Part shown: in pieces, positions 3,781-40,559 of the stretch
Layout: every line of letters begins with the position of its first letter
How positions within the stretch are numbered: position 1 is the stretch's first letter
Source of the DNA: Paraspadella gotoi
Lineage: Eukaryota; Animalia; Chaetognatha
NCBI GenBank assembly: GCA_051294375.1
Contig: JBJCIZ010000886.1
Coordinates: 1-46,245, forward strand
Reading direction: 5' to 3'
DNA length: 46,245 nt
The notes under the pieces: model-generated
Told to the model about the DNA's origin: nothing
The model's input: the letters and a program-made list of their open reading frames with translations, nothing else
The model's database searches: none
Translations under genes and position numbers: made by a program

Positions 3781-4079
3781 TTTAAAATCGCGAAACATGG
3801 AATTTCGCCAATTTCATTATTGTAATAGAAAAAGATGCGTCTATAAGATAAACCGATGGACAGACATAACATACCGAACAATCTGTCACGTTCCCATCTG
3901 TCCATGAAGATACTTTGGGCTACATAAATTTGTAGACTGACAAGCATATTTTTCTTGTACCTTTGTGTGATATGAGGTTAAGTACAGTTTGAAAAGATTT
4001 CCACTTAAACCCAATGATCAGACAGGCATGTTTCCAATAGGACAGATTTATCGAACGGTTGAATACAGACCGACCTTAC

Positions 4080-4335
4080 CCTCAGCGCCATCGTCGGTTC
4101 CTTCGCCTCAAATCCTCCATTATCGATCCCTTCCTTCTTTTGCGACTTGGTGTGGGCGTGGCTATGGCCGTGGGCGTGCCCGTGGTCGACTTTGTCTCCA
4201 TGGTAATAATTGGCGATGATACAGAAGACTGACTCAACTACGTAGAAGGCATAAATGGCGACTAAGAGAAGAAGCATTTTCCAAACGAAATTGATGTCCT
4301 TTTCGGCGTGAGCATCGTGGTCGGCTTCGTGCGAT
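4080..4335 (-). CDS. ZIP transporter exon (TM3 and His-rich cytoplasmic loop)
   Basis: Part of ORF 4005-4430: SHEADHDAHAEKDINFVWKMLLLLVAIYAFYVVESVF...DHGHAHGHSHAH. Acceptor ctcag, donor GTAAGG, phase 2 in and phase 0 out. Confidence 0.88.
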
Positions 4336-4429
4336 CTGAGATTGAAAGGGGAGGCATGTGAGACGTGTTCTTTGTTTGCAAGGGTGACCAGTGTCCACTG
4401 ACCATGGCAGGGCGGGACACAAAGTAACA

Positions 4430-5437
4430 CGTTTGAGCAAACAATGTCGGATCTGTCTACGATATTTAAGCGGTAATGAGCTAATCAGATGATGAATGAC
4501 GATAATTATTTCGATTTGTGATCATAACAGATCGTACCATACCAAACCAATGGTTGCGCATATATATGTAAAGGATTAAACTTGCAAGGGATTAAACTGA
4601 ACTGTTACTATGGTACAAACAAATAATTTTTTTAACTATTATTATTTTTTTAATTTTAATTTTTTTCAACTTGCACCATTTTTTTTACTCACTCCATTTT
4701 TCCACTTTCACTTTTTTTACTAGCATCATTTTTTTCATTTCGGACATTTTTTAAATTTAATTAATTAATCAATTAATTAACTAATTAAAACATTTATGAG
4801 TAAGCATAAATAATAAAATTTCAAGTCAACTTGACCTTGGTTTTTTTCATGCAAACTCATTTCCACTCCTCGATTCCATCTAAACTTTATATGCTGCTCA
4901 ATCACACACTTTCCTACCCAGTACCCACACACAAAATTTCATCTCATACTATCTTTCCAATTATGAATAATTTTAGTAATTATGGGTAAAAATTATTGTG
5001 TATAAACTATCAATTTCGTTGCGTTTTGAAATTTAGGAGAAAAAACAATTGTTAACAAGGGTTAAAATTAGTAAAAATATTCAAGAAAATGTGACTTATG
5101 TTTTTTTCCATTTAAACTAATTTCCACTTGCACGATTTCATTGAAACTTTATATCCAGGTTCATCACACACATTAATTAGTGTAATTATGGGTTAAAATT
5201 AGTAAAAAGATTCAAGTAAAAGTGACTTATGTTTTTTCTATTTAAACTCATTTCCACTCGAACGATTCAATCAAAACTTTATATCCAGCTCAATCACACA
5301 CTTTCCTATTTCAATTCAATTCAATTCAACCTTTCAATCACGAGTAATTGGAGTTTTTAGCTAAGGAGGGACGGACGGATGGATGGACATCATTTTTTTT
5401 CCATAATTTACCGACGGACCTACAAAGTGAATTATAT
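4430..5437 (+). mobile_element. Helentron/DINE-1-like repeat
   Basis: Begins gtttgagcaaacaatgtcggatctg and contains the family's tandem modules and (GGAC/GGAT)n. Its 5' part recurs inverted at about 26280-26565. Confidence 0.5.
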
Positions 5438-13029: not shown

Positions 13030-14080
13030 TGATAGTGCCTAGTCGGATCTAGCCAAAATCATTTTGGGTAATTAATTAATTAATTAATTAATAATTAATT
13101 CAAGTTAATTAATTATTTAAATAATTGTTTAATTAATTAAATAATTAATTAATAAATAATTAATTCAAGTTAATTAAATATTTTTTAATTAATAATTAAT
13201 TTATTCAAGTTAATTATTTAATTAATTAGGCAATTAATCAATTAATTTGATCCGAAATGTTTGTTTTTGATTGATTAATTGACTGATTAATTATTGATTA
13301 ATTATTTGACTAATTGATTAATTATTTGATTAATTAATACATTTTAAATTTAAATTTAAAATAAAAAGAACAAGAAGCATAATCAATTAGTGAAACAGGT
13401 TCTTTGTTTTTTCCATTTAAACTCATTTCTACTCAAACGATTCCATGGAAACTTGATTTCCAGTTTAATCACCTACTTTTCTACAAAATTTCAAGTCAAT
13501 CACCCCATCCACTCATGAGTTTTTGGTATTCAAATAGTGAAATAAATTTTTTTGTTTTTTCCATTTAAACTCATTTTCACTCGGACGATTCCATCGAAAC
13601 TTCATATACAGCTCAATCACACACTTCCCTACCCACACACAAAATTTCATTCTAATCCATCCATCCAATCACGAGTAATTGGTGTTTTTTGCTGATTTGG
13701 GACGGACGGACGGATGGATGGACGGACATCGTTTTTTTTGCATAATTTATCATAATTGGATGTTCTGACATGATATAAGTGAATGCTCGACAAGATTGAG
13801 GGGGCGGACCGACGGACTGACTAAGTGAATTATAGAGTCGGGATCTGCTGAAAGCAGAGCCGACTAAAAATGATGTCCGACATTGTCCATCTATCCATCT
13901 GTCCGTCCGTCCCTCCTTAGCATTAAACTCCAATTACTCGTGATTAGTTGGTTGCATTAGAATGAAATTTTGTGTGTGGGTGCGAAAGTGTGTGATTGAG
14001 CAGGATATTAAGTTTCGATGGCATTGTGCGAGTGGAAATGAATTTAAATGAAAAAAAAACAAAAGTCACATTTACTTAAA
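13030..14080. mobile_element. Helentron/DINE-1-like repeats (forward copy to about 13870, then an inverted fragment)
   Basis: (AATT)n-like tract, family modules, (GGAC)n and terminal hairpin gggatctgctgaaagcagagccgact. Confidence 0.55.
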
Positions 14081-14819: not shown

Positions 14820-15027
14820 GTGGATAAGGAGAGAGATCGTCTCACTTCTTTTCTACTTCTCTTACATCTTACAATTCTTTACCTTTTTTCCTACCTTTAT
14901 TTTCTCATATTTTTGTCATATTATCGTAGGCAGATCCGACATTGTATACTCAAACTTGTTTTAAGTTTAGTTAAGTTTTGAGTCACATGCTGGTCAGATA
15001 CCGCATTATCCCCCTCAACCAACTGAC

Positions 15028-15315
15028 TCGTGACTATGCAGTCCTAGCGAGATGGGAATAAGATGCAACAGGGAGTCCCCCAACATGGTCCCAATCGCCA
15101 AGCAAATCAGGCTCGATATGACGCTTTGGAAAAAGCTCTTTCCCATCAGCGGAACAACGAGGATCCCGATGAGAGAAATTAGGGTCACGATCAAGGTCGC
15201 CAGGAATCCGTAGCCGTAAATCTCCGAGAGAGACTTCTCCGTAGGCGGAGGCGTGGTTGCCTTTTTGGGGACACAGACGCCAGTAACGGCCTGTTGGATT
15301 AGGGCCGGGCAGAGG
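15028..15315 (-). CDS. ZIP transporter exon (PAL motif, TM1-TM2)
   Basis: Manual translation: LCPALIQQAVTGVCVPKKATTPPPTEKSLSEIYGYGFLATLIVTLISLIGILVVPLMGKSFFQSVISSLICLAIGTMLGDSLLHLIPISLGLHSH. CPALxxQ and LAIGTxxGDxxLHLIP are hallmark LIV-1 motifs. Acceptor cag, donor GTCAGT, phases 2/2. Confidence 0.92.
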
Positions 15316-15492
15316 CTGTTGGGCAGAGAAGAGGAATAATCAATTTGCGACCAGATTAGTTTGATTTGATATATTGAATGATTTGACTGATTGATTTATT
15401 AAATGTTTAATTGAAGGTTTTGAAAAGACAGAATAATTGTTATGAGTTAGTGACAGAACGGTTCTACATAATATATATATTATGGTTGACTA

Positions 15493-15670
15493 AAATCCAC
15501 CGACCGTTCATCAGCGGCCATTGGTGCCGGAGGCAAGTCATTCGCCTCCCAACCCAAAGATCCGGGGTTCTAGCCCGGTGGTCGCCTTGCAGTTAAGAGG
15601 GACGGGGTGCTTAACTCGCCTGTAACATGGTTTTATAGCCTGATCCGAAGCTCAGGGACTGCTTATATTG
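15493..15670 (+). mobile_element. tRNA-derived SINE-like repeat
   Basis: A/B-box-like segments (tggtgccggagg; ggttctagcc). A homologous inverted copy lies at about 26660-27170. Confidence 0.5.
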
Positions 15671-16767
15671 AACGGTTCTGTCATAACATTAATTACTGTT
15701 TCTTCAATATATATCTAGCTTGAACCCTGGCACCAAAATAAATACTTAAAGTTTATCTATTAACCAAATCATATAATTACATTTAGAATCATAATAGTAT
15801 CCTTTACAAAGTCTCCTTAGATTATTGTTTTGAACTAAGTTCGGAGAGTGGTTTCATTGACTTGCTAACTTTTCCGGGCTAACTCTTCGCCAAATAAAGC
15901 GTTGGTATTTGTGGCGTAATGGCGCAGAGGAGACGATGGCGCCGGTCAAAGACGCTCAGTAGTTGAGGACGACAAAGTCTCGGCCGAAGGCGAAGCCCAG
16001 GACGTACAAGTAGTTGTAGTAAAGTAAAGGTTGTGTAAGTTAAGAGGAAGTTAAGAGTTGTGTAAGTAGAAGTTAAGAGAAGAAGTTAAGAGAAGAAGAA
16101 GAAGAAGAAGAAGAAGAAGTTCGAAGTCCTGGGCAAAGGATAAGAAAACATTTAATACAAACTCAGCAAATATATATATATAAAGTTTAAAGAATCTTTC
16201 TTATTTCTGAAGCCATAATTGTACAAATAAGGTTGCTTCTCTCACAGGAAAGTCCACCAATCCAGCAATTACCAAATAGTTTCTTAAAACTAAAGATTCC
16301 GAGATTTATAGAGAAAGTGCAAGAATGGACAGATCTGACAGCTCACATCGATAAATCATAATTAGAATCTATCGAAATCCGATGAACCAATCAGAATCCG
16401 CCACGGAATCTGTACTTAAGTATATATATAACAAAAGTCTAAATAAAAAGATGTTTCTGAAATCGCTGAAAAGTTGGCAATTCTTGCGTCAGTAAAAAAG
16501 ACAAAAGAGCATCGGGAGAAGGTGGAGAAGCTGGATTTCATCGTGATATAAAAGATAGTTATTTCGTAACAATTATTATTAATTATAAATGACATACAGT
16601 CGCATCCGTATAGAATTTCTGAGACGGCAAGCTCAATAACTCGAGTACAAATGATAATTTGAAACCTAGTTTTTGTCTTGATATCGAGTAAGCTTCGGTA
16701 AGCTATTGCTCTACGACCACTATTGCATTGAAGTCTTAGTTTTTAAACACTCGGCCATCTCGTTATT

Positions 16768-18240
16768 AAACAAGTTTGAGCAAACAATGTCGGATCTGCC
16801 CACGATCATTATCGGTAATTAATTTATTAATAATTAAATAATTCAAGTTAATTAATTAATTAGTCAATTAATTAATTAATTTGATCCCAAATGTTTGTTT
16901 TTAGGTCTTTTCGTCACTAACCACGATAAAAGCAATGACGACGATGAGAATAATGTCGATAACAATTGACTTGATTGATTGACTGATTAATTAATTATTC
17001 ATTAATTAATTGACTAATTGATTAATTAATTGATTAATTATTTAATTTAATAATACATTCTGCATTTACATTTAATATAAAAGGAAAAAGAAGCATAATC
17101 AATTAGTGAAACAGGTTTTTTGTTTTTTTTCCATTTAAACTCATTTCCACTCAAACGATTCCATCGAAACTTGATTTCCAGTTTAATCACACACTTTTCT
17201 ACCCAAATACAAAATTTCAAGTCAATCGCCCCATCCACTCATGAGTAATTGGTGTTCAAATAGTGAAATATAAATTTTTGTTTTTTCCATTTAAACTCAT
17301 TTCCACTTGGACGATTCCATCGAAACTTCACATACAGCTCAATCACACACTTCCCTACCCACACACAAAATTTCATTCCAATGCATCCATCCAATCACGA
17401 GTAATTGGTATTTTTTGCTAAGCTGGGATGGACGGATGGACGGACGGACGGACGGACGGACGGACGGACGGACATCGTTTTTTTGGCATAATTTATCATA
17501 ATTCGATGTTCTGACATGATATAAGTGAGTGAAATTTTGTATTTGGGTAGAAAAGTGTGTGATTCAACTGGAAATCAAGTTTCGATGGAATCGTTTGAGT
17601 GGAAATGAGTTTAAATGGAAAAAACAAAGAACCTATTTCACTAATTGATTATGCTTCTTTTTCTTTTTATTTTAAATGTAAATGCAAGATGTATTAATTA
17701 ATCAAATAATTAATCAGTTAATTAATCAATTAGTCAATTAATTAATCAATAATTAATTAATCAGTCAATAAATCAATCAAAACAAACATTTCTGATCAAA
17801 TAAATTAATTAATTGCCTAATTAATTAAACAATTAACTTGAATAAATTAATTATTAATTAAATAATTAACTTGAGTTAATTAATTATTAATTAAATAAGT
17901 AATTAACTTGAGTTAATTTTTAATTAATTATTAATTAATTAATTACCGATAATGATCGTGGGCAGATCCGACATTGTTTGCTCAAAGTTGTTTCCATTTA
18001 AACTCATTTCCACTCACACGATTCCATCGAAACGTTATATCCAGCTCACACTTTTCTAATTACACAAAAAATCTAATTCCAATCCATCCATCTAATCACA
18101 TGTAATTGGAGTGTTTTGCTAAGGTGGGACGGACAGACAGACGGAAATCATTTTTTTTGCATAATTTATCATAATTCGATGTTCTGACTTGATATAAGTG
18201 AATGCCCGACAAGATTGGGGGGGCGGACCGACGGAACGTT
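16768..18240. mobile_element. Cluster of Helentron/DINE-1-like copies (forward, inverted, forward)
   Basis: 5' end aacaagtttgagcaaacaatgtcggatctgccc at 16769 and its reverse complement at about 17960-17992, with (GGAC)n and family modules. Confidence 0.55.
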
Positions 18241-18988: not shown

Positions 18989-21900
18989 TTTTTTTTTATT
19001 AATACCAAAAACAGTATTGACATAATCATAAACTGTAACAGTGTAAAAGACTGGAAAACTAAACTATGTAAAAACAAAAGACACTAACGTTTAAAAGACT
19101 GGAAAACAAGTAAAAACTAAACTACATATTGAAATTCAATAAAAAAAAAGACAATAATGTTTAAAATCATTAATAATAATAATAATTAATAATAATAATA
19201 ATCATTAATAATCGTAAACTGTAACAGTGTAAAAGACTGGAAAACTAAACTATGTAAAAACAAAAGACACTAATGTTTAAAATTATTAATAAATGTTATG
19301 AACTAATTCATAAGAAACTATAAAAAATAACGTTCAAGAACGTTCAAGGATCAAATGTAAAAATCATAAAACCGGAAAAAGTAAAAAACGAAAAATGTCA
19401 AATGTCAAGAGAAGTAATAGTTTTTATTTTAAATTTAATATTCAAGGTTTTGTTTTATAAAAAGTCATTATAAGTATTTAATGCATGGTGTTTAACATAT
19501 ACCTAAAAATATATATTTATAAGGTGTTAAAGTAAAGGGCAGAGGGACCACAATGCTATGAATAGAAATATCAAACTATAATCAATATATATATATATAT
19601 AAATATATATATAAATATAAGAATAGAAGAATAGAATAGAATATATATATAAATATAAGAATAGAAATATCAAACTATAATCAATATATATATATAAATA
19701 CATATATAAATATAAGCACCCAGATCAACAGAAAAAGACGCTAATAAAAACAGACAAAGAGACGCTAAAAACGAAATGAGACGCTAACATATACACAAAA
19801 CGACATGAGACGCTAACAGAAATACAAAACACTATATCACGTAAGTGTAAGAGACTAAGAGTACACGTATATATCACGTAACTATATCATGTATGTATAA
19901 GAATAAAAATAATTCCTACATCACCAATAAATAGAAACACTATCACAAAAATGCAAGAATAAAATAATCCTTTCACCAATTAATAGAAACACGATATCAC
20001 GCTATAAACTGACAACAGACGCTACCACATAAAACACAAAAAAGACACTAATAAAAAACATATAAAATATAAATATGTGGTCCCTCAATACCCAATACAA
20101 GATACCCTCATTGATTAAATAAGTTCCAATAGCCAATTTTAACCCGTAATTGAGAATAAGTTTCTGCAAATGACATTTCACTCAACCTCTTATTGGCTCC
20201 CTGTACCTCTAAAATGAAGTCAGGGGGATGATCAGTTGGGACAATATTTTCAAAAATCCTTTTCCTCTGAGAGCGTGGAGTTTTATTCATTGCCATATTT
20301 AAAAATTGACCAACAGTCTCAATTCCTCGTTCTACTATATTACTATTCCATGTAAATCAGTCACATTTGTATTATATGGTAATTATCAATTGGTAAATTA
20401 CCCGGCTCAAATTTGAAAGGCAAGCATGACCAAGCCCTTACAGCTTCAGCATAAAATCCCACCAATACCAATGGTAATCCCGCTACATTTGCCCTAAGGC
20501 TACCCAATCCATAAAACCCACATGCTTGTCCTCCAATAAGCTCATCCGCTAAAACTCTAGCAAAATATTCCCTTGGCATGCTTAACAACCGTTTAATCCA
20601 CATTATTCTCTGCACTTTAACCTTATTCCTGATATCCATTAATTGAGCTCCACCTTTATAATAAGAATCGCTCAGTCTATCTTTAGCAGTCTCTTTTCTA
20701 CCATAAAACATCCAATTTTCTACCTCAGTTTCTAAAGCATTAATATCTCCCCATGGAGGCGTCAACAATTCTGTTCTATACCATAAAGCAGAATACAGAA
20801 ATATATTAGTAACCTTTGCCCTTCCTAAGGTTGACAATGGCCGAGTTTTCCAGAGGGTCAACTTTGACTTAATACCTTTAAAAACATCAGCAAAATTGGC
20901 TTTTATCAGATCAACTCGACCTACCCACATTCCTAAGACCTTTGCCATGTCTTTCCAGGCCAGACCACAGAAATCCTTAGTTTTATTTTTCCAAGGTCCT
21001 AACCACAACCCCACTGACTTACCCCTATTTACCCTTGACCCTGCTGCCCTTTCATAACGAACTGCCTTTTCCATAAACTTCTCTACCGAGGCCTCTGACC
21101 CCAGGAAACCCTGGGTGTCATCGACATAGACCCCTACTTTTTCTCTCAGCCCCTTTAATTTTAATACCTTCTATCATTCTATCCTTCCTAATGGAGTTTG
21201 CAAAAACCTCAGCCACTAAAATATATAGGGTCATTGAAGGAGAATCACCCTGTCTCAATCCCCTGTCAATCAATATCTCATCAGACCAATGCCCATTAAC
21301 TAATATCTACTAGTTACCTTATTATAGAATGTCCTTACCCACTAATTAAATTCTACCAAACCAAATTTTTTTAAAGTTTAAAAACCATACTGTGGTCAAC
21401 CCTAAACATTTCTCAAGATCTAAAAAAAACAAAAGCGCCTCCTACCTCATGAATTTACAATAATCATGTAGATATGTCGCTCCGCGCTTAAAAAAAAATC
21501 CGAAAGAACGAAGCGGTTTCTGATAATTTTGGTTCCTAGCAATTTGCACCAGTAGCGCAGTAAATATTAAAAACCATGGATGATTTCTGAAACTGCAGTG
21601 TTTGGGCTATCCAACGCCGCCGGAACAAAGAAAATCCATAAAGGTCTTGACTAAAAAATACTGAAAATAAACACGACGCTTGGTCTGAATTCTTTTTAAT
21701 TTTTTTTTATTTTGCAGTATTTACTGTATAAGTCAATTAAATATACAGCGGTCATGCACTGATTCCGATTCTGTTGGGTTTAGCCTAACTTTCAAGCACA
21801 TAACGAAAAAATAAATTGACGACATAGTAAGAAATAATAGCAATTAATCCAAATTTTTTTCTCAAAATTTGTATTTCTTTGTTTCTTACTGTTTTTGCCA

Positions 21901-24900
21901 AACATGCCCTTTAAATTATAAAAATAAAGATTAGCTAATGAAACTACAATGTCTTAGGTACATTTCGTTGCCGGAACAAGAGAAAATTCATTGATATCAT
22001 AGTATCAATATGGAGCCTTGAAATAACTTATTTTCTTTGAATTTACCCCTTTATTGATAAAAGCCTTGTATTATAATAAAAAATAAAAACAACAATTTTA
22101 ACATAATAAAAAATATTATATTAATATAGCTAATGGGCATTATGCAAAGGTTTTAATTTGCACCTGAAGATGACAAAATTTAAAAATCTGATAATATAGC
22201 CTTTTAGCCCTATGTCAGTAGTTTTTAAATCAGCCGGAACAAAGTTTGAACTCCTAAATTTTCATATTTAAATCATATGTTTTTTAAGGTTCCTTCATGA
22301 ATTTTTTAAATTTTTTTGTTTTCAACAAATGATAATTCATTATCCTCAGTAATTATATAAACATTTGAGGTATAGAAAATTTTTGTTTATATCAGAAACT
22401 ATAATTCAATCTTTTCTCTTTCAGAATCTATATTTATTTATTTTTTTAAATACAGCCAAGTGTGTTTAATTTAATTTCAAAAGTTGTTAACTTTTGACTA
22501 AGATTCCGATCCAGATTTTAAAAAAATCCGTTGAAATATTTGAGAAAAATTACATGGAAAGATGTCCCATAATTATGGCTTTAATATGATACCAGTCTCA
22601 TCGTTCTATCATTTTTGGTTCAAAGATATCAAAGAAAATCAATTTTTTTATTACCAATTAAGTCACTCGGCCAAAGCTAAAAATTTAAGTGGAACCAAAA
22701 AGAAAATTTAACGAACGCAGATTTGTTTTAAAAATTGGGCGTGGAAATGACCATTTTTTTGTAGATTATTTTTCAACGCGTGGGTCGATTGATTTGAAAT
22801 GTTACATCAACAATATTGACATCATTTCCTATCAGTAAATGTAAAAATATTTAAAATAACATTATAAACGACCAGATAACTTGTCTATCTAATCAATGAC
22901 ATCCTGTATTACATGCAAAACATCTGATATTTTTCTCCCTGGTAAGCCTGCCTGATCTCATGCACCAATCCAGGTAAAACCTCTACTAATCGTGCATTAA
23001 TACAACCACTTATCATTTTATAATCTACATTTATTAAACTGACTGGTCTATAATTTTTGACATCCTCTCAATCACCCTTCTTATATATAAGACGAACAGT
23101 TCCCTCAGACATTGACCTAGTCACTCTTCCACTCTGAAAAACCCACTCAATCACCTCCATAAAGTCATTTGCCACCAAACCCCAAAAGCATTTCCAGAAT
23201 TCTGCAGGGAAACCATCCGCCCCAGGTGACTTACCAGAGGCCATTCATTCATTCATTCATTCTATCACACAAATATTTTTGCTGGTCAGTCAATCTCATA
23301 TCCACTTGATTTAAAAATTCATCTTGAATATTATCATCAATATCTCCTTTACTAAACATTTCTACATAGTGTTCATGAGCAACATGAAGCACGCCCTCTG
23401 ACCCTTCCCTGACCTGACCTTGCTTATCTTTTAATGCATAAATTAAACTACCATTAAATCTCATTTTCTCAATCCTACTAAAATACGCTAAACCCGATTC
23501 CCTCGTCTCAAAATGAGGTGCCCTCGACCTTATCCTTGCCCCTTCAGCCTTCCTCTCTTCTTCCTCTGCTAACCTTTCTTTTACGTAAGCCAAATGATCC
23601 TCATTAAAAATAGATCCCTGACCATTTCGAATTTCATTTTCTAACCTTTCTTTCTCTTTTTCCAAACCTTTAATAATCCTGCTTTCTCTTAATCTCTTTC
23701 TTCTTGCATAATCTGTAGTAACACTTCGCAAAACAGATTTGCCACAGTCCCCCATTCCCCTAGGTTATCAAACTCATCCTTACCTTGCCTTAAATCTTCC
23801 CATGTCTCTCTAACCAGTTGAATATATTCGATATCTAGTAACAAGGAAACATTAAACTTCCAATATCCACAACCTATTTTTAATTTTTCTTTAAGTTCGA
23901 CTTTTAACATTTTATGTCCATAACTTACCCATGGACAAGCCTGGGAAGTGATTTTACCCACTTCTCCTGCTATCGTTATATCAACATAAACTCTATCAAT
24001 CCTACTTTCAATATCACCAGCCCATTTAAAAGTAAAATCAACTTCATTACCATTTAAAAGTCGAAAAACATCTAGCAAACCAGCATCTCCTCTGCCACTT
24101 AGACTCACAACATTATCTATCACATCCCAATCATTAGATACAACGCAAATTATGCCTGCATAATCATCACCAACAATAGCTGGGCTATGCAACACCTTGT
24201 ATCTCAATTCCATATCTCTTACAGCCTGACATAATTCAGCATCATCTTTGCAATGTGTTTCCTGAATAGCCATTATCCCTAATCCCTTATCAGCATTTAA
24301 AAGATTTAATAGCCAATCACCCTTCCTCTGTCCTATATCACCCTTTAATCCTCCACTATTCCATATCGCTACCCTGTAAAGTGTAATTCGAATTTTTCCC
24401 TGTCCAAACTGCCCTCGTTGAAGTCTCCATTTTTGTTCATAACCAAAATTATTTTTAAAAACTTTTAATATTTGAACCATTAAAAATTAAAAATTAAAAA
24501 AAATGAAGATTCATAAAAATAAGAAATTTTTTTTTAATTTATGAAAACAAAAACAAAAACAAAAAATACAAATGCAGAACTTAAGAAAACAAAAACAAGA
24601 ACAAAAATAAAAATTGGATTCATTTTATAATAAATTTTTAAGCTCATTTAAATATTTAATTATAATAAATTTTAAAACTCATTTAAATATTGCAGTAATC
24701 TCTAGTATTTTGAATATTTAACTCTATATCTTGAATCTCAAATCAGTCCTTAAGTATAAATAGAGAATAAAACTTATTTCGGCGTATAAAAACAAGAAAA
24801 ACGGAAAAAATACAAATAAAAAGAAACACAATCAGTTTCCCACCCTATCCCTACGAGAAGTGTGCTGTCCCCTTCCCACACCTGGAGAACGAGATCTGTC

Positions 24901-25495
24901 CCTTTCCACAAGAACGACAGCGCCTAGAGGGCCTCGTGGAGGCGCTTGCGAAGGAGATTGATTGATCAATCGATTGCGCGCTTCCGATCGCAGACGCAGA
25001 CGCTGAGGCAGCGGAGGCAGCGGTGCCTGTGCTGGAGCTTGTGCTGGAGCCTGTGCTGGAGATGCCGATGCCGATGCCGATACCACTACTTCACTGACTT
25101 CAACAAAATCGTCATCGTCGTCTTCATCACCATCCTCTTCCACCTCCACCAAAGGCGGACATCTCCCACGTGGGTGCATCTGCGTGCACCTGAGACAACC
25201 AAATTTGTAGTGGTTCTTAAAAATCCTTGAGTAAGCGATCTCTGTCACTTGCACCCCATCAAAGACTCTCTCTCCCATCTCTCTCTCCACCACTCTTCCC
25301 ACTTCCTCTAACACCTTGCTCGTTCCTGTTGCTGAATAGTGGACACCGTCTTCAATCACATCTTCTTCTGCTTCCCACTGCAAACCCTCCAGTGAAACCC
25401 ACAGGCTTCCACTTCCTAATGCCACCGCCTTCATTGCCGATCGTACCATCCTCCAATGATGGTCTCCATCTGTCTCTCCATGAATAGGCCATGAA
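18989..25495 (-). mobile_element. L1/Tx1-like LINE, 5'-truncated and degenerate
   Basis: ORF1 remnant at 24832-25449. ORF2 has an APE endonuclease (AIWNSGGL, MAIQETH, SRIDRVYV, GYWKFNVSLL) and an RT (SPGADGFP, NYRPVSLINVDYK, GLRQGDSP, YVDD near 21120, LSTLGRAKVTN). A long repetitive 3' UTR ends in AATAAA/poly(A) at about 18990. Confidence 0.9.
21467..22889. mobile_element. 1.4-kb non-coding element inserted in the LINE RT
   Basis: Flanked by a TAATCA duplication (21461-21466 and 22890-22895) that interrupts the RT frame at ...QDVIDY|C.... Part of it is repeated inverted at 1160-1611. Confidence 0.7.
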
Positions 25496-25650
25496 TATTT
25501 TTTTTTTTTTTTTTATTAATACCAAAAACAGTATTGACATAATCATAAACAGTAATAGTGTAAAAGACTGGAAAACTAAACTATGTATTGAAATTCAATA
25601 AAAACAAAAGACCCTAACATTTAAAAGACTGGAAAACAAGTAAAAACTAA
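25496..25650 (-). mobile_element. Additional 3'-end fragment (poly(A) tail) of the same LINE
   Basis: Matches 18989-19140, including the T-run tail. Confidence 0.7.
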
Positions 25651-26659
25651 AAAAAAAATATATAATTTAAAGAAATAAAAGAAAGGAAAAAAATGTTACA
25701 ATTGTTTACAATTGGAAATCTTTACAATTTTTTCCAATCATAGATTGTAAAAGATTTTATTTTTATTTGTATTTATATTAAGATATAGCTTGTCATTAAA
25801 AAGGTCTTTTGATTTCACATATTTTTTATTGATTCAAAGATTTGTTTATGAATTTCATCTTCAATATTATTTACTGCAATATGTAAATTAGATTAAAGCA
25901 TTTCTATATACTAATTTGGATATTATAATGAGTACTATAATCTCATTTGCATATTGCAGTAAAATTGAAGTAAAAATTCAAACAAAAAATACTTGAATCC
26001 AAATGTAATATGAAAATTTCAGAGCTATTTCAAGATGAGAAGCCATATCTAAATTTTTAACTTACACTTTTATAAAATTTAATTGTAATTTATAATAATT
26101 TTAATTTAAAAAAAAACAGTAAGTCCCAGCCAAAACTATAAAAGCGTAGTAGTTTTTATATAAAAATGCGTGACGCCAACGACGATGACGATGACGACGC
26201 CGACGTCGACGACTTCCCAAAGAAGCTCACCCGAATCAATATCGAGCCTGAACCGGCTTCGCCGGTAGGCTCGATAAAAATTATGCTAGTTGAAAAAATT
26301 ATTCAAGCTGAAAAAATGGTGCGAGTTTAAAAATGATTCAAGTTGAAAAAAAATACTAGTCAAATAGATTATTTGTACCATAGTAACAGTTCAGTTTAAT
26401 CCCTTGCATGCGATTTACATGTATTGGCGCAGCTATTGGTTTGGTATGGTACGATCTGTTATGATCAGTTAAGATCACAAATTGAAAGAATTATCGTGAT
26501 TTATCTTCTGATTAGCAAATTACCGCTTAATTTCGTAGGCAGATCAGACATCGTTTGCTCAAAGTTTGTTTGTTTGTTTGTTTGTTTAGACCTAGTCTTG
26601 CTTGATGTTATTGTCTGTACTGAATCAACCATGTTGAATTCGAAATAAAATGCATATAA

Positions 26660-27170
26660 TATAAGCAGTCCCGAGCTTTGGATCAGGCTGTTACACCTTG
26701 TTACACAGGGTTAAGCGCCCCGTCCCTTATAACTGTAGTCGGGTACTGTACTGTACTGTACGAGGTACCGGGTTCAAACCCAACCCGGTACCTACCCTGC
26801 GGGAAGTGTGACGACGGCCGTAAGCCGCCTTGAGGGCGTGGAAAACCCTCAAGCCTGGTTCCAAGCCCAGGACCCGTTTCATAGCGACTAGAGGGGGTTA
26901 TAGAAGATGACTATCCGTAACTGGTTCCAAGCCCAGGTCCCGTTCCATAGCTACTAGAGGGGGTTATAGTGGTCATGAGCTGATGGCTTTACTCAATGAG
27001 CCACCGGGTCAGGAATGAAGGTGTCATGCTTATAGGCGGGGTGAACTTATGCAATGCCCGACTACATAACTGCCCTTTTGGTTGAGAGGCGAATGACTTG
27101 CCTCCTGCAGCAATGACTGATGAGCGGGGTCCAACATGACCTCTGTGAACGGTTGGTGAATTTTAAGCCA
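26660..27170 (-). mobile_element. SINE-like repeat interrupted by a rearranged TRIM-A LTR
   Basis: Reverse-complement similarity to 15493-15670 on both sides of the 26734-27066 insert. Confidence 0.5.
26734..27066. mobile_element. Rearranged TRIM-A LTR derivative with inverted termini
   Basis: Starts TGTAGTCGGG and ends CCCGACTACA, with a TAAC TSD (26730-26733 and 27067-27070). It is a mosaic of forward and inverted LTR segments and includes the twister-like motif at 26799-26877. Confidence 0.8.
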
Positions 27171-27219
27171 TCAGAGTTTTACTGATTGGTTGACCGATCA
27201 ATTGACTGTTAAAATTTAC

Positions 27220-28240: not shown

Positions 28241-28415
28241 GTCTTATGGATTCGCATCAAAAATCAATCATCAGTGCTAGATGTGTAGTCGGGCATAGCA
28301 AAGTTCACCCCGCCTCTAAGCATGAACCTTCAGTCCTGACCCGGTGGCTCATTGAGTAAAGCCATCAGCTCATGACCACTAGGTACCGGGTTCAATCCCA
28401 ACCGGTACCTACCCT

Positions 28416-28493
28416 GCGGGAAGTGTGAGGACGGCCGTAAGCCGCCTTGGGGCGTGGAAAACCCTCAAGCCTGGTTCCAAGCCCAGGACCCGT
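28416..28493 (+). ncRNA. P5-type twister-ribozyme-like motif (TRIM-A 5' LTR)
   Basis: GCGGG(P5)-AA-GUGU-GA-GGA-CGGCCG(P1)-UAA-GCC-GCC-P3 hairpin-CCUGG-UUCCAAGC-CCAGG-A-CCCGU(P5'). The T1 pairing is UCC/GGA. P2 is one nucleotide short and imperfect. Confidence 0.6.
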
Positions 28494-28814
28494 TCCATAG
28501 CTGCTAGAGGGGTTAAAGAAGTTACGGATAGTCATCTTCAGCCCACTTAGCGCCTTATCCACACTGGTGAGCCCATCCTGTCGAGCGTATTCCAACCTTC
28601 TGATTCCAGGCCATGGACGTGCTGAAGATTGCTCCCCTCCTCCACTGAAGCAGTGCAGGGTGGGTTACAATCTGGGGGCATGTAGTCGGGCATAGCAAAG
28701 TTCACCCCGCCTCTAAGCATGAAACCTTCAGTCCTGACCCGGTGGCTCATTGAGTAAAGCCATCAGCTCATGACCACTAGGTACCGGGTTCAATCCCAAC
28801 CCGGTACCTACCCT

Positions 28815-28894
28815 GCGGGAAGTGTGGAGGACGGCCGTAAGCCGCCTTGGGGGCGTGGAAAACCCTCAAGCCTGGTTCCAAGCCCAGGACCCGT
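28815..28894 (+). ncRNA. P5-type twister-ribozyme-like motif (TRIM-A 3' LTR)
   Basis: Second copy of the motif. The predicted U/A cleavage site 28838/28839 is 400 nt from the first. Confidence 0.55.
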
Positions 28895-29265
28895 TCCATA
28901 GCTGCTAGAGGGGTTAAAGAAGTTACGATAGTCATGCTTCAGCCCACTTAGCGCCTTATCCACAGATGCTCCTTATCATATTCTCAAACAAATAACATTA
29001 CTAAAACTTCTTCCTAAGTCAATTTTTAAAATAGTTGCACCATATACAAAATCATGGTTTGCACATCCAGAAAATTTGTTTACGGCATTCCTCGCATCTC
29101 CAGAAAAAAATATTCGCTGCTTCGCCAGTAAGAATTAAATTTAGAGATGAGGAAAAGAAATGGAGACCATTTAAAAAATAGAGCCAAAACCCTAAGTCTT
29201 ACTTTTTAAAAAAGCAAGCAACATTATTCCTGACCTCTCCATCCCTCCTTGAATTTCAAACTTAC

Positions 29266-29938
29266 CCTCGTCTCCTTTCAGCTTCTTCAACAAAGCAGCT
29301 ATGGACGAGCTGTCCAGTTTTGTGGAATTTAGAAAAGATTTTTGAATGCTCTCCAAAAAGAAGGTGGCTTTCACCGCCTTATCGTCGCAGTAAAAGGTGC
29401 CTTCTTTCAAGTGGATAGTCAAGTTGTACAAAATATCCTTCGACTCTTCGAGGGACACAAATTCTTTCCCTTTTGGCCAAAGAGTTTCCAGGCAAAGTTT
29501 ATGGTCATCATGATCGTCGTCATGATCTTCATGATCATGAGTCTCATTGCCATGAGTTTCATTGCCATGTCCATGCTCATCGTTTCCATGCTTTTCCTCT
29601 CCATGCTCGTCATGTTCCTCTTGTATTTTGAAAGCCTTGAGCCTTTCGAGTATCTCTTCATACTGCGAATGCTCGAAAACCGAATCGTTTTGAGAGGCAA
29701 ACTTCTGTATTTCCCCAAGGTAAGTTCCGTTGTCCGATGAGTCGAGGCAGGAAAAGGGAAGTTTGATGAGAAGATGAAGCAAAACGAAAGTGGATGCCAT
29801 CGTCTGGGCGGCGGTCAGCGGGTAAGGAGATGTAAACCCAATTTTGGTGAGGACTTGTTCGCCGCTTAAGCAGTCATTAGCTTTGAGAACTTTGTCCTGC
29901 ATGTATGGGTGAGGCAAGACGCTGAAAGGCTCTAATAC
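29266..29938 (-). CDS. LIV-1-subfamily ZIP (SLC39) zinc transporter, His-rich extracellular-domain exon (most 5' exon identified)
   Basis: ORF 29192-29947 has a His/Glu-rich tract (EHDEHGEEKHGNDEHGHGNETHGNETHDHEDHDDDHDDH) and Cys-Leu motifs. Acceptor ttcag at 29939-29943 and donor GTAAGT at 29265. The exon is 673 nt and ends in phase 1, matching the next exon. The start/signal-peptide exon was not identified. Confidence 0.85.
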
Positions 29939-30388
29939 CTGAAGCAAGAATTATAATGGATCATAATAAAAACAATCTTGTTTGTGCAATATAAAGCACT
30001 TGATTATTACCTCGTGTACGAAGTGGGTCATGTTAGCCAAATTATTTATCGTTAAATAATTCATTTTTTTTATATATTCGTCGGTTGAATCTATGCGGAG
30101 CGATTTTAATAAGTACATTTTATTAAAAATTAAAACAACATTAAAAGAATAATATACCAATGAGAATAATAAAAAATATTGAAAGAATAATCAACGAATG
30201 AGAATAATAAACAAATTGAAAGAATAATGAACAAATCACTTCAGCCAATATAGATTCTAACTTCCCAGAGACGAATTTATGACTAAATTTCCACATTTAC
30301 AGATTGTAAAAACCTGTTTGTCTAGATTTGTGTGGAAGAGGATCGAAGCAGCAACTTGAATTGAAGTCATGCGACGATAAATATTCAG

Positions 30389-33199: not shown

Positions 33200-34316
33200 T
33201 TCAACTTGCATTCCGTCAAAAACTTTATATCTAGCTTCTTCACTCACTTTCCTACTGGCTCACAAAAATTTCATCTCAATCTATCATGGGTTAAAATAAA
33301 TAAAAAGATTCAAGTAAATGTGACTCATATTTTTTTCATTTAAACTCATTTCCACTGGTTACGTTCGCGCTGAAACTTTTATCAAGCTTCGTCACACATT
33401 TTCCTACCCACACACAAAATTTCAACTCAATCTATCCATCCAATTATGATTAATTAGAGTATTTATTGGTTAAAATAAGGTAAAAAGATTTTAGTAAATT
33501 CGACTTATGTTTCTTCCATTTAAACTAATTTCCACTCACACGATTCCATCGAAACTTTATATCCAGCTTTATCACACACTTTCCTACTCACACACAAAAT
33601 TTAATTCCAATCCAACCAGCCAATCACGAGTTATTGGAGCTTTTTGCTAAGATGGGACGGATGGACGGATTGATTGACTAATTAATTAATTATTGATTAA
33701 TTTATTTACTAATTATTAATTAATGATTAATTATTTGATTTATTAATACATCCTGCATATACATTGTAATATAAAAGGAAAAAGAACCATAATCAATTAG
33801 TAAAACAGGTTTTTTGTTTTTTTCCATTTAAACTCATTTCCACTCAAACTATTCCATCGAAACTTGATTTCCTGTTCAATCACACACTTTCCTACCCATA
33901 CAAAATTCCAGGTCAATCAGCCCATCCACTCATGAGCAATTGGTGTTCAAAATAGTGAATATATTTTTTTTGTTTTTTCCATTTAAACTCATTTCCACTC
34001 GGACGATTCCATCGAAACTTCATATCCAGCCTCAATCACACACTTACCTATCCTCACACAAAATTTCATTTAAATCCATCCATCCAATCACGAGTAATTG
34101 GTGTTTTTTGCTAAGGTGGGCGGACGGACGGACGACGGCGGACGGACGACGAGAACAGACGGACGACGGACATCATTTTTTTTTGCATAATTTTTCATAA
34201 TTCGATGTTCTGACATGATATAAGTGTGTGCCCGACAATATTGAGGGGGCGGACCGACGGACCGACAAAGTGAGTTATAGAGTCGGGATCTGCCTGATAA
34301 GCAGATCGACTAAAAA
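33200..34316 (+). mobile_element. Helentron/DINE-1-like repeat
   Basis: Tandem family modules, (GGAC)n and terminal hairpin gggatctgcctgataagcagatcgact. Confidence 0.55.
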
Positions 34317-34843
34317 TCGTTGTTCCTAATTCGCTCAAAACAACGAAATGAAAGGAACTTAACATAATTCTGAATTTTAACAGTTACTAAGAAACGAATC
34401 TTTTGTAACTAATATTTATTTTGTCTATTTAGAGCTATGATAGTTTTTTTATGATATATATAATTCTTTGTGATACACTATCATATGACAATAAAAAACT
34501 ATTATTTATAGTAGATCAAAAACTATTAATATTGCGTATTTTATCAGTTTTTAAGTGTCATTTCGGTTTTGGACACGCCCACTATGGTAAGAACCTTTTT
34601 TAAAACATTTTTAAAGTAAAACTTATTAAATAATGAGAGTAACTTAAAATTTGGGCAATTATTATTTTTATAAAACTATTTTCTTATCTTGCAATTAAAG
34701 AAACGAGAAAAATTCCATTTTGTAGTCAACATCAACTTCCGGTNNNNNNNNNNNNNNNNNNNNNNNNNNNNNNNNNNNNNNNNNNNNNNNNNNNNNNNNN
34801 NNNNNNNNNNNNNNNNNNNNNNNNNNNNNNNNNNNNNNNNNNN

Positions 34844-36926
34844 ACCTTTCTTTCTCTTTTTCCAAACCTTTAATAATCCTACTTTCTCTTAATCTCTTTC
34901 TCCTTGCATAATCTATAGTAACACTTCGCAAAACATATTTACCACAGTCCCACCATTCCCCTATGTTCTCAAACTCCTCCTTGCCTTGCCTTAAATCTTC
35001 CCATGTCTCCCTAATCAGTTGAATATACTCAATATCAAGTAACAAGGAAACATTAAAACTTCCAATATCCACAACCATTTTTATATTGTTCTTTAAGTTC
35101 CACTTTTAAGCATTTGTAGTGCGCAAAATTTACCCAAGGACAAGCTGAGAAGTAAGGGGGTCGTTGAAAATAAACAAATATATACAAATCAAGGTGAGGT
35201 ACATAGCTATTTAGTCGTAATAAAGTCTGTAGAATTTGAGTGATATAACCATGTTTTTGAATAGTCTTAATCTTACTTTGTGCGGAAATGGCGATTTTTG
35301 AGCAAGCAATATAAGGTGCATTAAAATGGAGCAAACCCATTGTAGAGTAATAAGAAACTCAAAATTATTAAGATTTTATAAAAGCCATATTTAACTAAAA
35401 AGAAAATAAAGGAAGCCCATATAAATATTTTGGTAAGTTTATTTACAATGTATATTTGATTAATAGTTTGTTAGCGTATATTTATTAATAATAATAATAA
35501 AAAATAGAGCTAAAGTGAAAAAAAAAAAAGAATTTTAAATTTTAAACAGAATTTGAATTCTCTTACAAAAAATTGATATAAGAAAATCATAATCCATTTA
35601 AAAATTCTTTATTAAGTAGGGTTACAAATATTAACAACTATTATTTTTATTTAAATTTTTCAATTTTGTGGGCTTTAAAACTAAGTTTCTGATTTTGACG
35701 CAACATTAATGGACATAATTTTGAATAATAAAAATTATCATTTTCTTATATCAACTTGTTTGCAAAGAATGCAAATCCATAAAAAAATTTTGAAATTAAT
35801 TATTAAACTTTAGCACCCCAATTTTACTCCATAATATATTAATAAATAATGAGTTAACTAACACTTTTATATAAACATAAAATTTAGAAATAAACTTACC
35901 AAATATTTTAATTGGAGATCTTTATTTTTATATTTCAAAGCTCATATAAATGTTTATAAAATTTAATAATTTGATTTAAGCATAACTTATAATGGGTGTT
36001 AATAAGTTTGATATCACATTGAAAAAACCCCCTATTTCGACAAGAAAGATAAAATTAAATACAAAAAAAGGTCATCACATACGAATTCTACAGAACTACC
36101 ATTAGCACTAAAATTAGTCATGGTACCTCCTTGATTTGTTATATTTTGTTATTTTCAAACGCTCTACTGAAAGTGATTTGTACTCACTTCCCCTGCTATC
36201 GTTCTATCAGCATAAACTCTATCATTCACTACTTTCAATATCGACCAGCACCATTTCTAAAAGTAAAATCAACTTCATTACCATTCAAAAGTCGAAAAAC
36301 ATCAAGCAAAGCAGCATCTTCTTTTATATCTGCAAAAATCGGACCGAGAATTTGATCATATCTTGTCAGTAAATCACTCCTTCTATCTCTGCTTTCTTCT
36401 ACAAAATTAAAATCTCCCATCACAATATTAGAACACGAAACATCTATCACTTCATTCAATTTTCTTATCCATGATCCACCATCCAATCCTCCACTTACTC
36501 CATAAACCAAAATAAAATTTATCACCTTACCAGAAACCACATTTTGAACTTTTACTGACATCACTCTGCCACTTAAACTCACCACATTATCTATCACATC
36601 CCAATCATTAGATACAACGCATATTATGCCTGCATAATCATCACCAACAATAGCTGGGCTATGAAACACCTTGTATCTCAATTCCATATCTCTTACAGCC
36701 TGACATTTTTGCAATGGGTTTCCTGAATAGCCATTATCCCTAATCCCTTATCAGCATTTAACAGATTTAATAGCCAATCACCCTTCCTCTGTCCTGAATC
36801 ACCCTTTAATCCACCACTGTTCCATATCGCTACCCTGTAATTCGAATTTTCCCCTGACCCAACTACCCTCGTTGAAGTCGCCATTTTTGTTCATAACAAA
36901 AAAATAATTTTCCCAAAACTTTTAAT
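34844..36926 (-). mobile_element. Second L1/Tx1-like LINE copy (endonuclease region), interrupted at about 35110-36170 and bounded by gaps
   Basis: ORFs 36693-36884, 36235-36714 (GDFN motif) and 34695-35078 are near-identical to the copy at 23600-24450. Confidence 0.88.
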
Positions 36927-39399: not shown

Positions 39400-39618
39400 C
39401 TAGGAAAAAAGTATGACATAATTCATTTATTCAATAAAAAGTATATAAAACATGGGTATTGGGTAAAATATTATGATGACATTCTCAATATTTGGTATAC
39501 CCTTCCTCAGCATTAATTACTGCTTGCCTTTGTTTGGGTATGCTCTTATACAGCAAATTGAGGTATTATAGCAACAGCCGGGTTGCCTGTGATGCCCATT
39601 GGGATGGGGCATCTCACT

Positions 39619-39699
39619 GTTAGCTTTGGGGGCTTCCGACCCTCAGTGACGCCTCCAGTCACTGGCGCGGTTACCCTAGGACGGTCTCGCTTTGCCAAC
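39619..39699 (-). ncRNA. P5-type twister ribozyme (TRIM-B 3' LTR)
   Basis: GUUGGC(P5)-AAA-GCGA(P2')-GA-CCG-UCCUAGGG(P1)-UAA-CCGC(P2)-GCC-AGUGAC/UGGAGGC/GUCACU(P3)-GA-GGG-UCGGAAGC-CCCC-AAA-GCUAAC(P5'). T1 is CGG/CCG and T2 is GC/GC. Confidence 0.75.
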
Positions 39700-40107
39700 G
39701 CAGAGGGAAGTCTTTAGGACTGTGGATGGAACACTACGCTTAGGATGGTGTGTTCCCCCTCTGAACCAATGTATTTGGCTGAAGGATGGTGGACGTGAGG
39801 CGGTATGAATATACCGCCACAGGATCCCTGGGCCAAGACATCACTCAGGTTCCTCAAGCCTGAGAGGTGTCTGACAAGACTGTTACCATAGTGGGAGAGA
39901 GAGAGAGAGCGCGAGATGTGGGGGCATAGGCGTTTGTCGTAGCGTACCCCAGGGGCATAGGCGTTTGTCGTAGCGTACCCGAAGTTGGCAGGGCATAGGC
40001 GTTTGTCGTAGCGTACCCTGAGAAGGTTGCGTGTTCGATAGTAGGGCTCACCACTTATGGCAACAGCCGGGTTGCCTGTGATGCCCATTGGGATGGGGCA
40101 TCTCACT

Positions 40108-40188
40108 GTTGGCTTTGGGGGCTTCCGACCCTCAGGGACGCCTCCATTCACTGGCGCGGTTACCCTAGGACGGTCTCGCTTTGCCAAC
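40108..40188 (-). ncRNA. P5-type twister ribozyme (TRIM-B 5' LTR)
   Basis: Same core with a perfect P5 (GUUGGC/GCCAAC) and two substitutions weakening P3. The predicted cut 40162/40161 is 489 nt from the other copy. Confidence 0.72.
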
Positions 40189-40559
40189 GCAGAGGGAAGT
40201 CGTTAGGACTGTGGATGGAACACTACGCCTGGGATGGTGTGTTCCCCCTCTGAGCCAATGTATTTGGCTGAAGGATGGTGGACGTGAGGCGGTGTGAATA
40301 TACCGCCACAGTATGACAGTAAAATGTTTGACATCTTTAACGCAATTCTGCGCAGCCCCGATATTAATGTTGCGAATCTTTCTTTCTTTTCTGAGAGCTA
40401 TAATAATATTTTTTAACCAGAAAGTGGTGCAAGGCCTTTAGCATTGTCAAATTAAAAAATTATTTAAAAAATCTTAAAAGCATAAAGATCGAGCCGCTTT
40501 CGGAGGCGGCCTCAGATATAATGGCTACGTCATGCGCAAACGACCAAAACTGGGAGGAC

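Follow-up and report, generated by a model that had tools for sequence, protein, structure and literature searches.

What could a twister-like ribozyme motif be doing in both terminal repeats of a retrotransposon that codes for nothing? This question is raised by TRIM-A, an element of the chaetognath Paraspadella gotoi that occupies positions 28,284 to 28,964 of contig JBJCIZ010000886.1 (assembly GCA_051294375.1). The analysed DNA comprises positions 1 to 46,245 of the forward strand of this contig and is called the window in the following. TRIM-A is a non-coding long terminal repeat (LTR) retrotransposon with a total length of 681 bp, a terminal-repeat retrotransposon in miniature (TRIM), and each of its LTRs carries a permuted motif that is very probably derived from a twister ribozyme. 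As to the role of the motif, we tentatively favor the idea that TRIM-A is a twister-bearing, retrozyme-like TRIM, whose RNA would be cut to a 400-nt unit, circularized and reverse transcribed, although we place the likelihood of this whole chain slightly below even. An earlier note on this DNA had already described the motif and its counterpart in a second element, TRIM-B, and its claims are taken up where the respective evidence is given. The first step is to define the element, and its parts are the following:

28284-28563, plus strand: 5' LTR of TRIM-A (LTR1), 280 bp, TG...CA, in direct repeat with 28681-28964
28681-28964, plus strand: 3' LTR of TRIM-A (LTR2), 284 bp, TG...CA
28564-28680, plus strand: interior of TRIM-A, 117 bp, without open reading frame (ORF)
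28280-28283 (left) and 28965-28968 (right), plus strand: target-site duplication (TSD) GATG, identical in all 4 bases
28565-28574, plus strand: stretch resembling a primer-binding site (PBS), TGGTGAGCCC, 1 nt past the 5' LTR and beginning with TGG
28674-28678, plus strand: G-run as a weak polypurine tract (PPT), directly before the 3' LTR
28380-28409, plus strand: hairpin GGUACCGG / CCGGUACC with the loop GGTTCAATCCC, just upstream of the twister-like motif
26735-27066, plus strand: third, rearranged LTR-A copy (A3), recognized by sequence comparison

The borders of the element, the LTR length of about 280 bp, the TG...CA termini, the GATG duplication and the 117-bp interior had been given in the earlier note, and they are borne out by the sequence and by the alignment of the two LTRs, which are 97.9% identical over 285 columns. 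All six differences are single-base indels, and because five of them fall inside homopolymer runs, some may be assembly errors. The GC content of TRIM-A is 0.558, as compared with 0.342 for the window. In three DNA sequencing runs of the same organism, 7075, 7041 and 2842 contigs match LTR-A, and in many of these family contigs unrelated AT-rich flanks begin exactly behind position 28563 or just before TGTAGTCGGG. As the contigs leave at the LTR borders into unrelated flanks, we conclude that a high-copy family has this same unit with these same ends and that it includes many solo LTRs; contig depth is lower over the interior than over the LTR, yet the interior is covered in every run. Short LTRs, a short non-coding interior, a TSD, a high copy number and copies that end at the LTR borders are thus all found, and this combination is what we take to define a TRIM. 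The third copy, A3, has its first 100 bp inverted at the far end (26967-27066), has the part from P4 to P5' of its motif duplicated (26921-26966), and interrupts a decayed copy of another repeat, family C (region 26658-27200, minus strand), that is described below.

As the unit is present 1.7 times, at intervals of about 400 bp as in a short tandem, TRIM-A could in principle also be a tandem or short interspersed nuclear element (SINE)-like non-LTR retrozyme of the animal type. Such a reading could draw on the hairpin at 28380-28409, which forms in the predicted 400-nt fold and whose loop GGTTCAATCCC resembles the B box of tRNA genes. A tRNA-derived LTR is unsupported, as neither ARAGORN nor Rfam found any tRNA match in LTR-A. 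The same hairpin, which is strong and lies upstream of the motif (region 28338-28410, plus strand), has a similar counterpart at the corresponding place in family C (CCGGGGTTCTAGCCCGG). The TG...CA ends, the 4-bp TSD and the TGG-starting PBS-like site, which is shared with TRIM-B (the same 10-mer TGGTGAGCCC lies beside an LTR of that element at 40044-40053, minus strand), fit an integrase-type insertion, and retrozymes of the non-LTR type in animals have type I hammerheads but possess no LTR, PBS or PPT (PMC7229834). We regard it as very improbable that TRIM-A is such a tandem or SINE-like element, or that its motif is a chance look-alike, the latter being excluded by controls that are given below.

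What identifies the motif as a twister? Its parts in the family A copies can be assigned as follows:

28416-28493, plus strand: twister-like motif of the 5' LTR in a permuted, type-P5-like order, detected by Rfam and by the descriptor explained below
28416-28420 and 28489-28493, plus strand: P5 of this motif, GCGGG and CCCGU
28423-28426, plus strand: P2', GUGU, following AA
28427-28428, plus strand: GA
28429-28431, plus strand: T1', GGA
28432-28437, plus strand: the self-complementary CGGCCG ("P1")
28438-28440, plus strand: UAA
28441-28443, plus strand: P2, GCC
28444-28445, plus strand: T2, GC
28446-28469, plus strand: P3, a 7-bp hairpin
28470-28474 and 28483-28487, plus strand: P4, CCUGG and CCAGG, followed by A
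28475-28482, plus strand: loop L4, U-UCC-AAGC
28815-28894, plus strand: twister-like motif of the 3' LTR, with an extra G before GA and a seventh G in P3
26799-26877, plus strand: twister-like motif of A3, with T1' CGA and a perfect 8-bp P3
28438/28439, plus strand: U^A of the 5' LTR, at which cleavage is predicted because U-A takes the position of the twister cut in the UAA loop (PMC5408937, PMC8501958)
28838/28839, plus strand: predicted cleavage site U^A in the 3' LTR

The permuted order of elements that had been proposed before is readable at 28416-28493. Judged against Table 1 of PMC8501958, which sets out natural twisters column by column, LTR1, LTR2 and A3 have all conserved loop nucleotides of twisters (UAA, GA, GC and G-U-NNN-AAGC-C). 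The T1 contact UCC/GGA has all three pairs in both LTRs, in accordance with the earlier note, but only two of three in A3, which has GA-CGA, and the T2 contact GC/GC is present. The stems of family A comprise 5 bp in P4, 7-8 bp in P3 and 5 bp in P5, and all of them covary with those of families B and C. The search with twister models that had been suggested indeed retrieved twister families, albeit only below the gathering thresholds: Twister-P5 (RF02684) matched LTR1 with 16.6 bits (E 0.96) and part of the LTR2 motif with 15.5 bits (gathering 37.6), and Twister-P1 matched TRIM-B on the minus strand with 24.1 bits (E 0.015, gathering 67.2). In the targeted Rfam search, Twister-P5 was the only ribozyme family that turned up in TRIM-A, and no hammerhead match was found in the element at any Rfam threshold used.

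The possibility of a chance resemblance was addressed by a descriptor that consists of a P4 stem (3 or 4 bp in two versions) with a U-NNN-AAGC loop and of an upstream part, in which GA plus the reverse complement of NNN is followed by up to 30 nt, UAA, 3-4 nt, GC and up to 60 nt. In the window, this descriptor matches both LTRs of TRIM-A, both LTRs of TRIM-B and the family C locus at 15589-15662. Of 300 dinucleotide shuffles of the window, 3 gave a single match with the 4-bp P4 and 9 with the 3-bp P4 (mean 0.01-0.03 per shuffle), and no descriptor match was obtained with decoy T1' sequences (reversed, complement or same triplet). The window contains ten U-NNN-AAGC hairpins, eight of which are part of families A, B and C. 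GA+T1' and UAA are retained in six copies, in which the position of GA+T1' ranges from -39 to -45 and that of UAA from -28 to -34. For an outside control, a metagenome scan with the hairpin query CCTGGTNNNAAGCCCAGG yielded 120 loci with 128 hairpins; none of the 120 loci is akin to LTR-A by blastn. The descriptor passes four of the 128 hairpins, and all four can be read as permuted twisters with a real P1 hairpin. The Twister-P5 model assigns 51.9 bits to one of these loci (L094), which is above gathering, and about 31 bits to two others (L001 and L110), and the fourth (L107) has no Rfam match at E <=0.01. We read the loci L001, L107 and L110 as permuted twisters whose P2 has 3 nt and whose P1 hairpins covary, and they may represent a natural short-P2 twister lineage. 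P3 and P5 lie outside the descriptor and are therefore independent helices: in comparison with shuffles, the P3 end-stems reach 7-8 bp in A (P <=0.0005), 7 bp in B1 (P 0.0006) and 6 bp in C (P 0.011), and in A and C, P5 comprises 5-6 uninterrupted pairs (shuffle P 0.04-0.07). In B2, P3 has only 3 pairs (shuffle P 0.072) and looks decayed. Shuffles, decoy T1' sequences and the metagenome control together led us to reject a chance resemblance.

The fold is also conserved in families that do not share the sequence. In addition to TRIM-A, the following copies are involved:

39566-40314, minus strand: TRIM-B, with 260-bp LTRs
39620-39701 and 40109-40190, minus strand: twister-like motifs of TRIM-B, T1 CGG/CCG
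15480-15669, plus strand: family C repeat (C1), about 190 bp
15589-15662, plus strand: twister-like motif of family C in the same permuted order, T1 CCG/CGG, ending 7 nt from the 3' end of the repeat
26665-26736, minus strand: twister part of a decayed second family C copy (C2), found by blastn and matched with 29.1 bits by R1, a covariance model of our own

TRIM-B lies on the minus strand, which corrects the earlier note, and its motif runs sense to its own PBS, which is also on the minus strand. Its P5 can be drawn with 6 of 7 pairs and a mismatch, or as the 5-bp helix UUGGC/GCUAA that is chosen by the covariance model. The PBS-like stretch of TRIM-B is complementary to an apparent tRNA 3' end over about 21 nt, and in the interior of the element, at 39918-40020, a unit of about 28-35 bp (GGGCATAGGCGTTTGTCGTAGCGTACCC) occurs three times in tandem. 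Family C has no LTR-type ends and gave no Rfam match at E values up to 10; its stems comprise 6 bp in P3, 5 bp in P4 and 5-6 bp in P5, and its P2 has 3 nt. The sequence GAACGGTTCT occurs on both sides of the family C repeat (15457-15466 and 15670-15679), and this pair may be a duplication. The twister part of C2 has lost T2 and one T1 pair.

The T1 contact differs between the families (A, UCC/GGA; B, CGG/CCG; C, CCG/CGG), and the compensatory swap between TRIM-A and TRIM-B that had been noticed earlier is thus real. A MAFFT alignment misaligned family B and was set aside, and a covariance model built from families A and C was used instead to align seven rows (A1-A3, C1, C2, one fragment and B1). 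In this alignment, 91.0% of the paired cells can pair, as compared with 70.6% in shuffled controls (reached by 0 of 500 shuffles), and 17 of 26 pairs have changes on both sides (reached by 1 of 500 shuffles), with the limit that the structure was derived from the same sequences and that the alignment was fitted to the structure. If the partners are slid by 1-3 columns, only 2-4 two-sided pairs remain and pairing drops to 21-47%. P3, P4, P5 and the T1 pseudoknot covary across families, this comparison comprising three independent families only, with the T1' of B placed partly in insert columns. The twister-type fold is hence kept by compensatory changes in three sequence-distinct families, which bears out the conservation that the earlier note had claimed for two and, with family C, adds a third. 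Its further claim of selection on ribozyme function is a fair conclusion from the covariation, which suggests such selection but does not demonstrate it.

Does the motif still cleave? A canonical P2 consists of four Watson-Crick pairs (PMC5408937). In all three A copies, P2 has only 3 nt (GCC) that face GUGU or GCGU, and only a G.U and a C-G pair are formed. The earlier note had described GCC against GUGU in all three copies; the short P2 holds for all three, whereas the family majority at position 28424 is C, which results in GCGU (72-90% of the contig depth, 80% in one run). The short P2 is apparently family-wide, as none of the variants listed reaches 10% there. P1, which the earlier note had drawn as a stem, is CGGCCG with a loop of zero nucleotides, so that at most one pair is possible in cis and a P1 hairpin cannot form.

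Several observations weigh against an active ribozyme and against the proposed cycle. Besides the apparently family-wide P2 with its two pairs, for which an altered length has been suggested to disturb the active site (PMC5408937), and besides the circularity in the covariation alignment that is mentioned above, no twister match reaches the Rfam gathering level anywhere in the window, and T1 is broken in one of the three window copies of family A (A3). The minimum-energy fold of the 91 nt from 28410 to 28500 lacks P4 and indeed contains the hairpin CGGC/GCCG that the earlier note had named as a competitor (z = -0.46), although minimum-energy folding ignores pseudoknots, and the fold of the 400-nt monomer is only modestly better than that of shuffles (z = -2.0). 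P3 and P4 do form in the predicted folds of A3 and of the 400-nt monomer. The covariance model R1 had to be rejected as a twister detector, as chance loci that share the hairpin score 11-28.4 bits and the permuted twister L001 only 15.3 bits; as R1 cannot tell genuine twisters and chance loci apart, little weight is attached to the family B match of this model (E 0.37). Finally, the mutational scan of the rice twister did not include deletions (PMC5113685).

These weaknesses are the basis of the main rival explanation, according to which the motif is a relic: the LTR would descend from a twister-bearing ancestor, cleavage would have been lost through the short P2 and the missing P1, the family would have spread as an ordinary TRIM with solo LTRs, and the conservation of the fold would reflect history or a non-catalytic RNA structure. 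It would then be no surprise that P2 has two pairs of 3 nt in three of three copies and that the family nevertheless occurs in thousands of contigs, that the Rfam scores stay far under gathering, that the competing hairpin appears in the minimum-energy fold, and that decayed copies exist (A3, P3 of B2, C2). However, the conserved loop nucleotides are intact in A, B and C despite completely diverged stems, and T1 has remained complementary with three different sequences, a pattern that would hardly persist unless the fold were under selection. Moreover, twisters frequently withstand a single mismatch in P1, P2 or P4 in vitro: 33 of 69 single mutants in these stems of the rice twister retained an activity of more than 80% (PMC5113685). 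On balance, we consider a relic unlikely, albeit a serious contender. P1 is phylogenetically conserved, yet it is dispensable for twister cleavage in vitro (PMC5408937), and because of this dispensability and of the frequent tolerance of single P2 mismatches, we infer that the motif probably still cleaves.

The loop-less P1 can also be seen from a different angle. In all families, the stretch that links T1' to UAA is self-complementary over its whole length and leaves no loop nucleotide, the sequences being CGGCCG in A, UCCUAGGG in B, GGUGCU in C1 and GGCGCU in C2, with lengths of 6-8 nt. Such a pattern would be expected for an obligate-dimer ("double") twister, in which the pairing of P1 requires a second copy, such as the other LTR of the same transcript. 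RNAs with two copies would then be cut into the 400-nt unit, whereas one-copy circles and transcripts of solo LTRs would be spared, as is the case with double hammerheads. The joint chance of zero-loop linkers is 2.5e-5 to 7.4e-5, depending on whether word frequencies of the elements or of the window are used, but the pattern was noticed post hoc, and the loss of an ancestral P1 loop together with CpG-type changes could mimic part of it. As B and C need G.U pairs, the linker signal is at the RNA level and on the sense strand. The half-lengths of 3-4 bp correspond to a normal P1 (PMC8501958, Table 1), and dimeric hammerheads are known from vertebrate retrozymes (PMC7229834). For family A, RNAcofold predicts a domain-swapped dimer in which P3 and P4 are formed and which is 6.9-13.7 kcal/mol better than two monomers; however, any hairpin-rich RNA gains energy in a cofold, and the dimers predicted for B and C are other extended duplexes and not the swapped form. 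As a twister works without P1, a dimer is also not required, and we rate the obligate dimer as rather unlikely.

If the motif cleaves as we propose for the retrozyme-like cycle, transcription would run through both LTRs, and the twister fold would cut the element RNA after U28438 and U28838. The two predicted sites (U28438/A28439 and U28838/A28839) are spaced by 400 nt, and the predicted product, a 400-nt RNA (28439-28838), would begin with the 3' portion of LTR1, continue through the PBS and the interior, and finish with the 5' portion of LTR2. Its 5'-OH and cyclic-phosphate ends would be held together by the re-formed ribozyme, and a host ligase of the RtcB type would likely circularize it. 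The reverse transcriptase of an autonomous LTR element, primed by a tRNA at TGGTGAGCCC, would then likely copy the RNA, as has been proposed for plant LTR retrozymes, and the primer tRNA would end with ...GGGCUCACCA. The layout of LTR retrozymes is found in TRIM-A insofar as the element is non-coding and has two LTRs, a 4-bp TSD and a PBS-like site, with a mere G-run as PPT.

An active ribozyme could alternatively serve to free the element RNA from read-through host transcripts, as in the Perere-3/RTE elements. This is the sole experimentally supported role of eukaryotic twisters (PMC8501958), and it would suit an element that is intronic and lies on the strand opposite to the surrounding ZIP-like exons, as well as family C, which is not an LTR element. 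In case of TRIM-A, however, the motif is positioned about 130 nt inside each LTR and not at the 5' end of the element, and cutting in both LTRs would remove both termini that ordinary LTR replication needs. End-trimming therefore appears improbable to us.

How does TRIM-A relate to systems that are already known? The plant LTR retrozymes (Cervera, Urbina and de la Pena 2016, PMC4918200; PMC7229834) have a similar architecture: they are likewise small and non-coding, with two LTRs, a 4-bp TSD, a PBS and a high GC content, and each LTR has a self-cleaving-ribozyme motif in the same sense, so that cuts would release a sub-kilobase RNA that bears the PBS. They differ in that they use type III hammerheads and produce RNAs of 600-1000 nt, whereas TRIM-A has a twister-like motif and a predicted RNA of 400 nt, and resides in an animal. 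With the type-P5 twisters (Rfam RF02684, clan CL00120), of which the metagenome locus L094 with its 51.9 bits is a genuine example, TRIM-A shares the order of elements, the loop nucleotides, T1, T2, P3, P4 and P5, but it has a loopless 6-nt stretch in place of the P1 hairpin, a 3-nt P2 with two pairs, and 16.6 instead of 37.6 bits. The twister T-variants of Perere-3 (RTE) in Schistosoma mansoni (Liu et al. 2021, PMC8501958) are also twisters of a high-copy invertebrate retrotransposon, they have a weak or unconventional P1, and their UAA-CUC-GC-CUGUA is also found in family C. These variants are of type P1, lie at the 5' end of an autonomous long interspersed nuclear element (LINE), and have been shown to cleave, whereas the motif of TRIM-A is permuted, lies in the LTRs of a non-autonomous element, and has a predicted cleavage site. 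The metazoan non-LTR retrozymes (Cervera and de la Pena 2020, PMC7229834) resemble TRIM-A in being animal repeats with predicted ribozyme-bounded RNAs of 170-400 nt, and some of their hammerheads function as dimers only; they differ by type I hammerheads, tandem arrays, the absence of LTR, PBS and PPT, a low GC content and longer TSDs.

Twisters have been tied to LINEs of the RTE type (PMC8501958; PMC7761336, which cites unpublished work), and twister-bearing circular RNAs of unknown origin have been described from metatranscriptomes (bioRxiv 10.1101/2022.07.19.500677). Our full-text literature searches yielded no paper that connects twisters with LTRs, TRIMs or retrozymes. So far, retrozymes have been described only with hammerheads, the LTR type in plants and the non-LTR type in animals. 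If the retrozyme-like cycle of TRIM-A is real, it would add another ribozyme class, the second, and a new group of hosts to the retrozyme concept, it would provide a natural source of small twister-bounded RNAs, and it would explain the thousands of twister motifs in some genomes. The combination of a loop-less P1 with a 3-nt P2, which independent families have in common, also raises the question of what a minimal twister is and whether it can function as a dimer.

As to the surroundings, three exon-like ORFs in the window belong to a ZIP metal transporter (SLC39, LIV-1-like):

4005-4484, minus strand: exon-like ORF of the ZIP transporter
15015-15395, minus strand: exon-like ORF of the ZIP transporter
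29192-29950, minus strand: exon-like ORF of the ZIP transporter

TRIM-A, the neighborhood of TRIM-B, and family C lie in or near introns of this gene. Among nine ORFs that were compared with Pfam, a sub-threshold match to Zip was the sole one; the Atlas contained no match for the ZIP-like exon, and a homologue is nearest to metazoan ZIP clusters. Long ORFs at 20361-25512 and 34695-36747 (minus strand) resemble remnants of non-LTR retroelements by eye, and Pfam gave no match at E <=0.01 for the retroelement-like ORFs tested. A run of N is present near 34.8-34.9 kb. Finally, a dispersed repeat with internal duplicates of about 156 bp occurs at 32-458, 5094-5387, 13399-13848, 17117-17531 and 33322-34293; it terminates with (GGAC)n plus a conserved tail, and it often adjoins tracts that are rich in AATTAATT.

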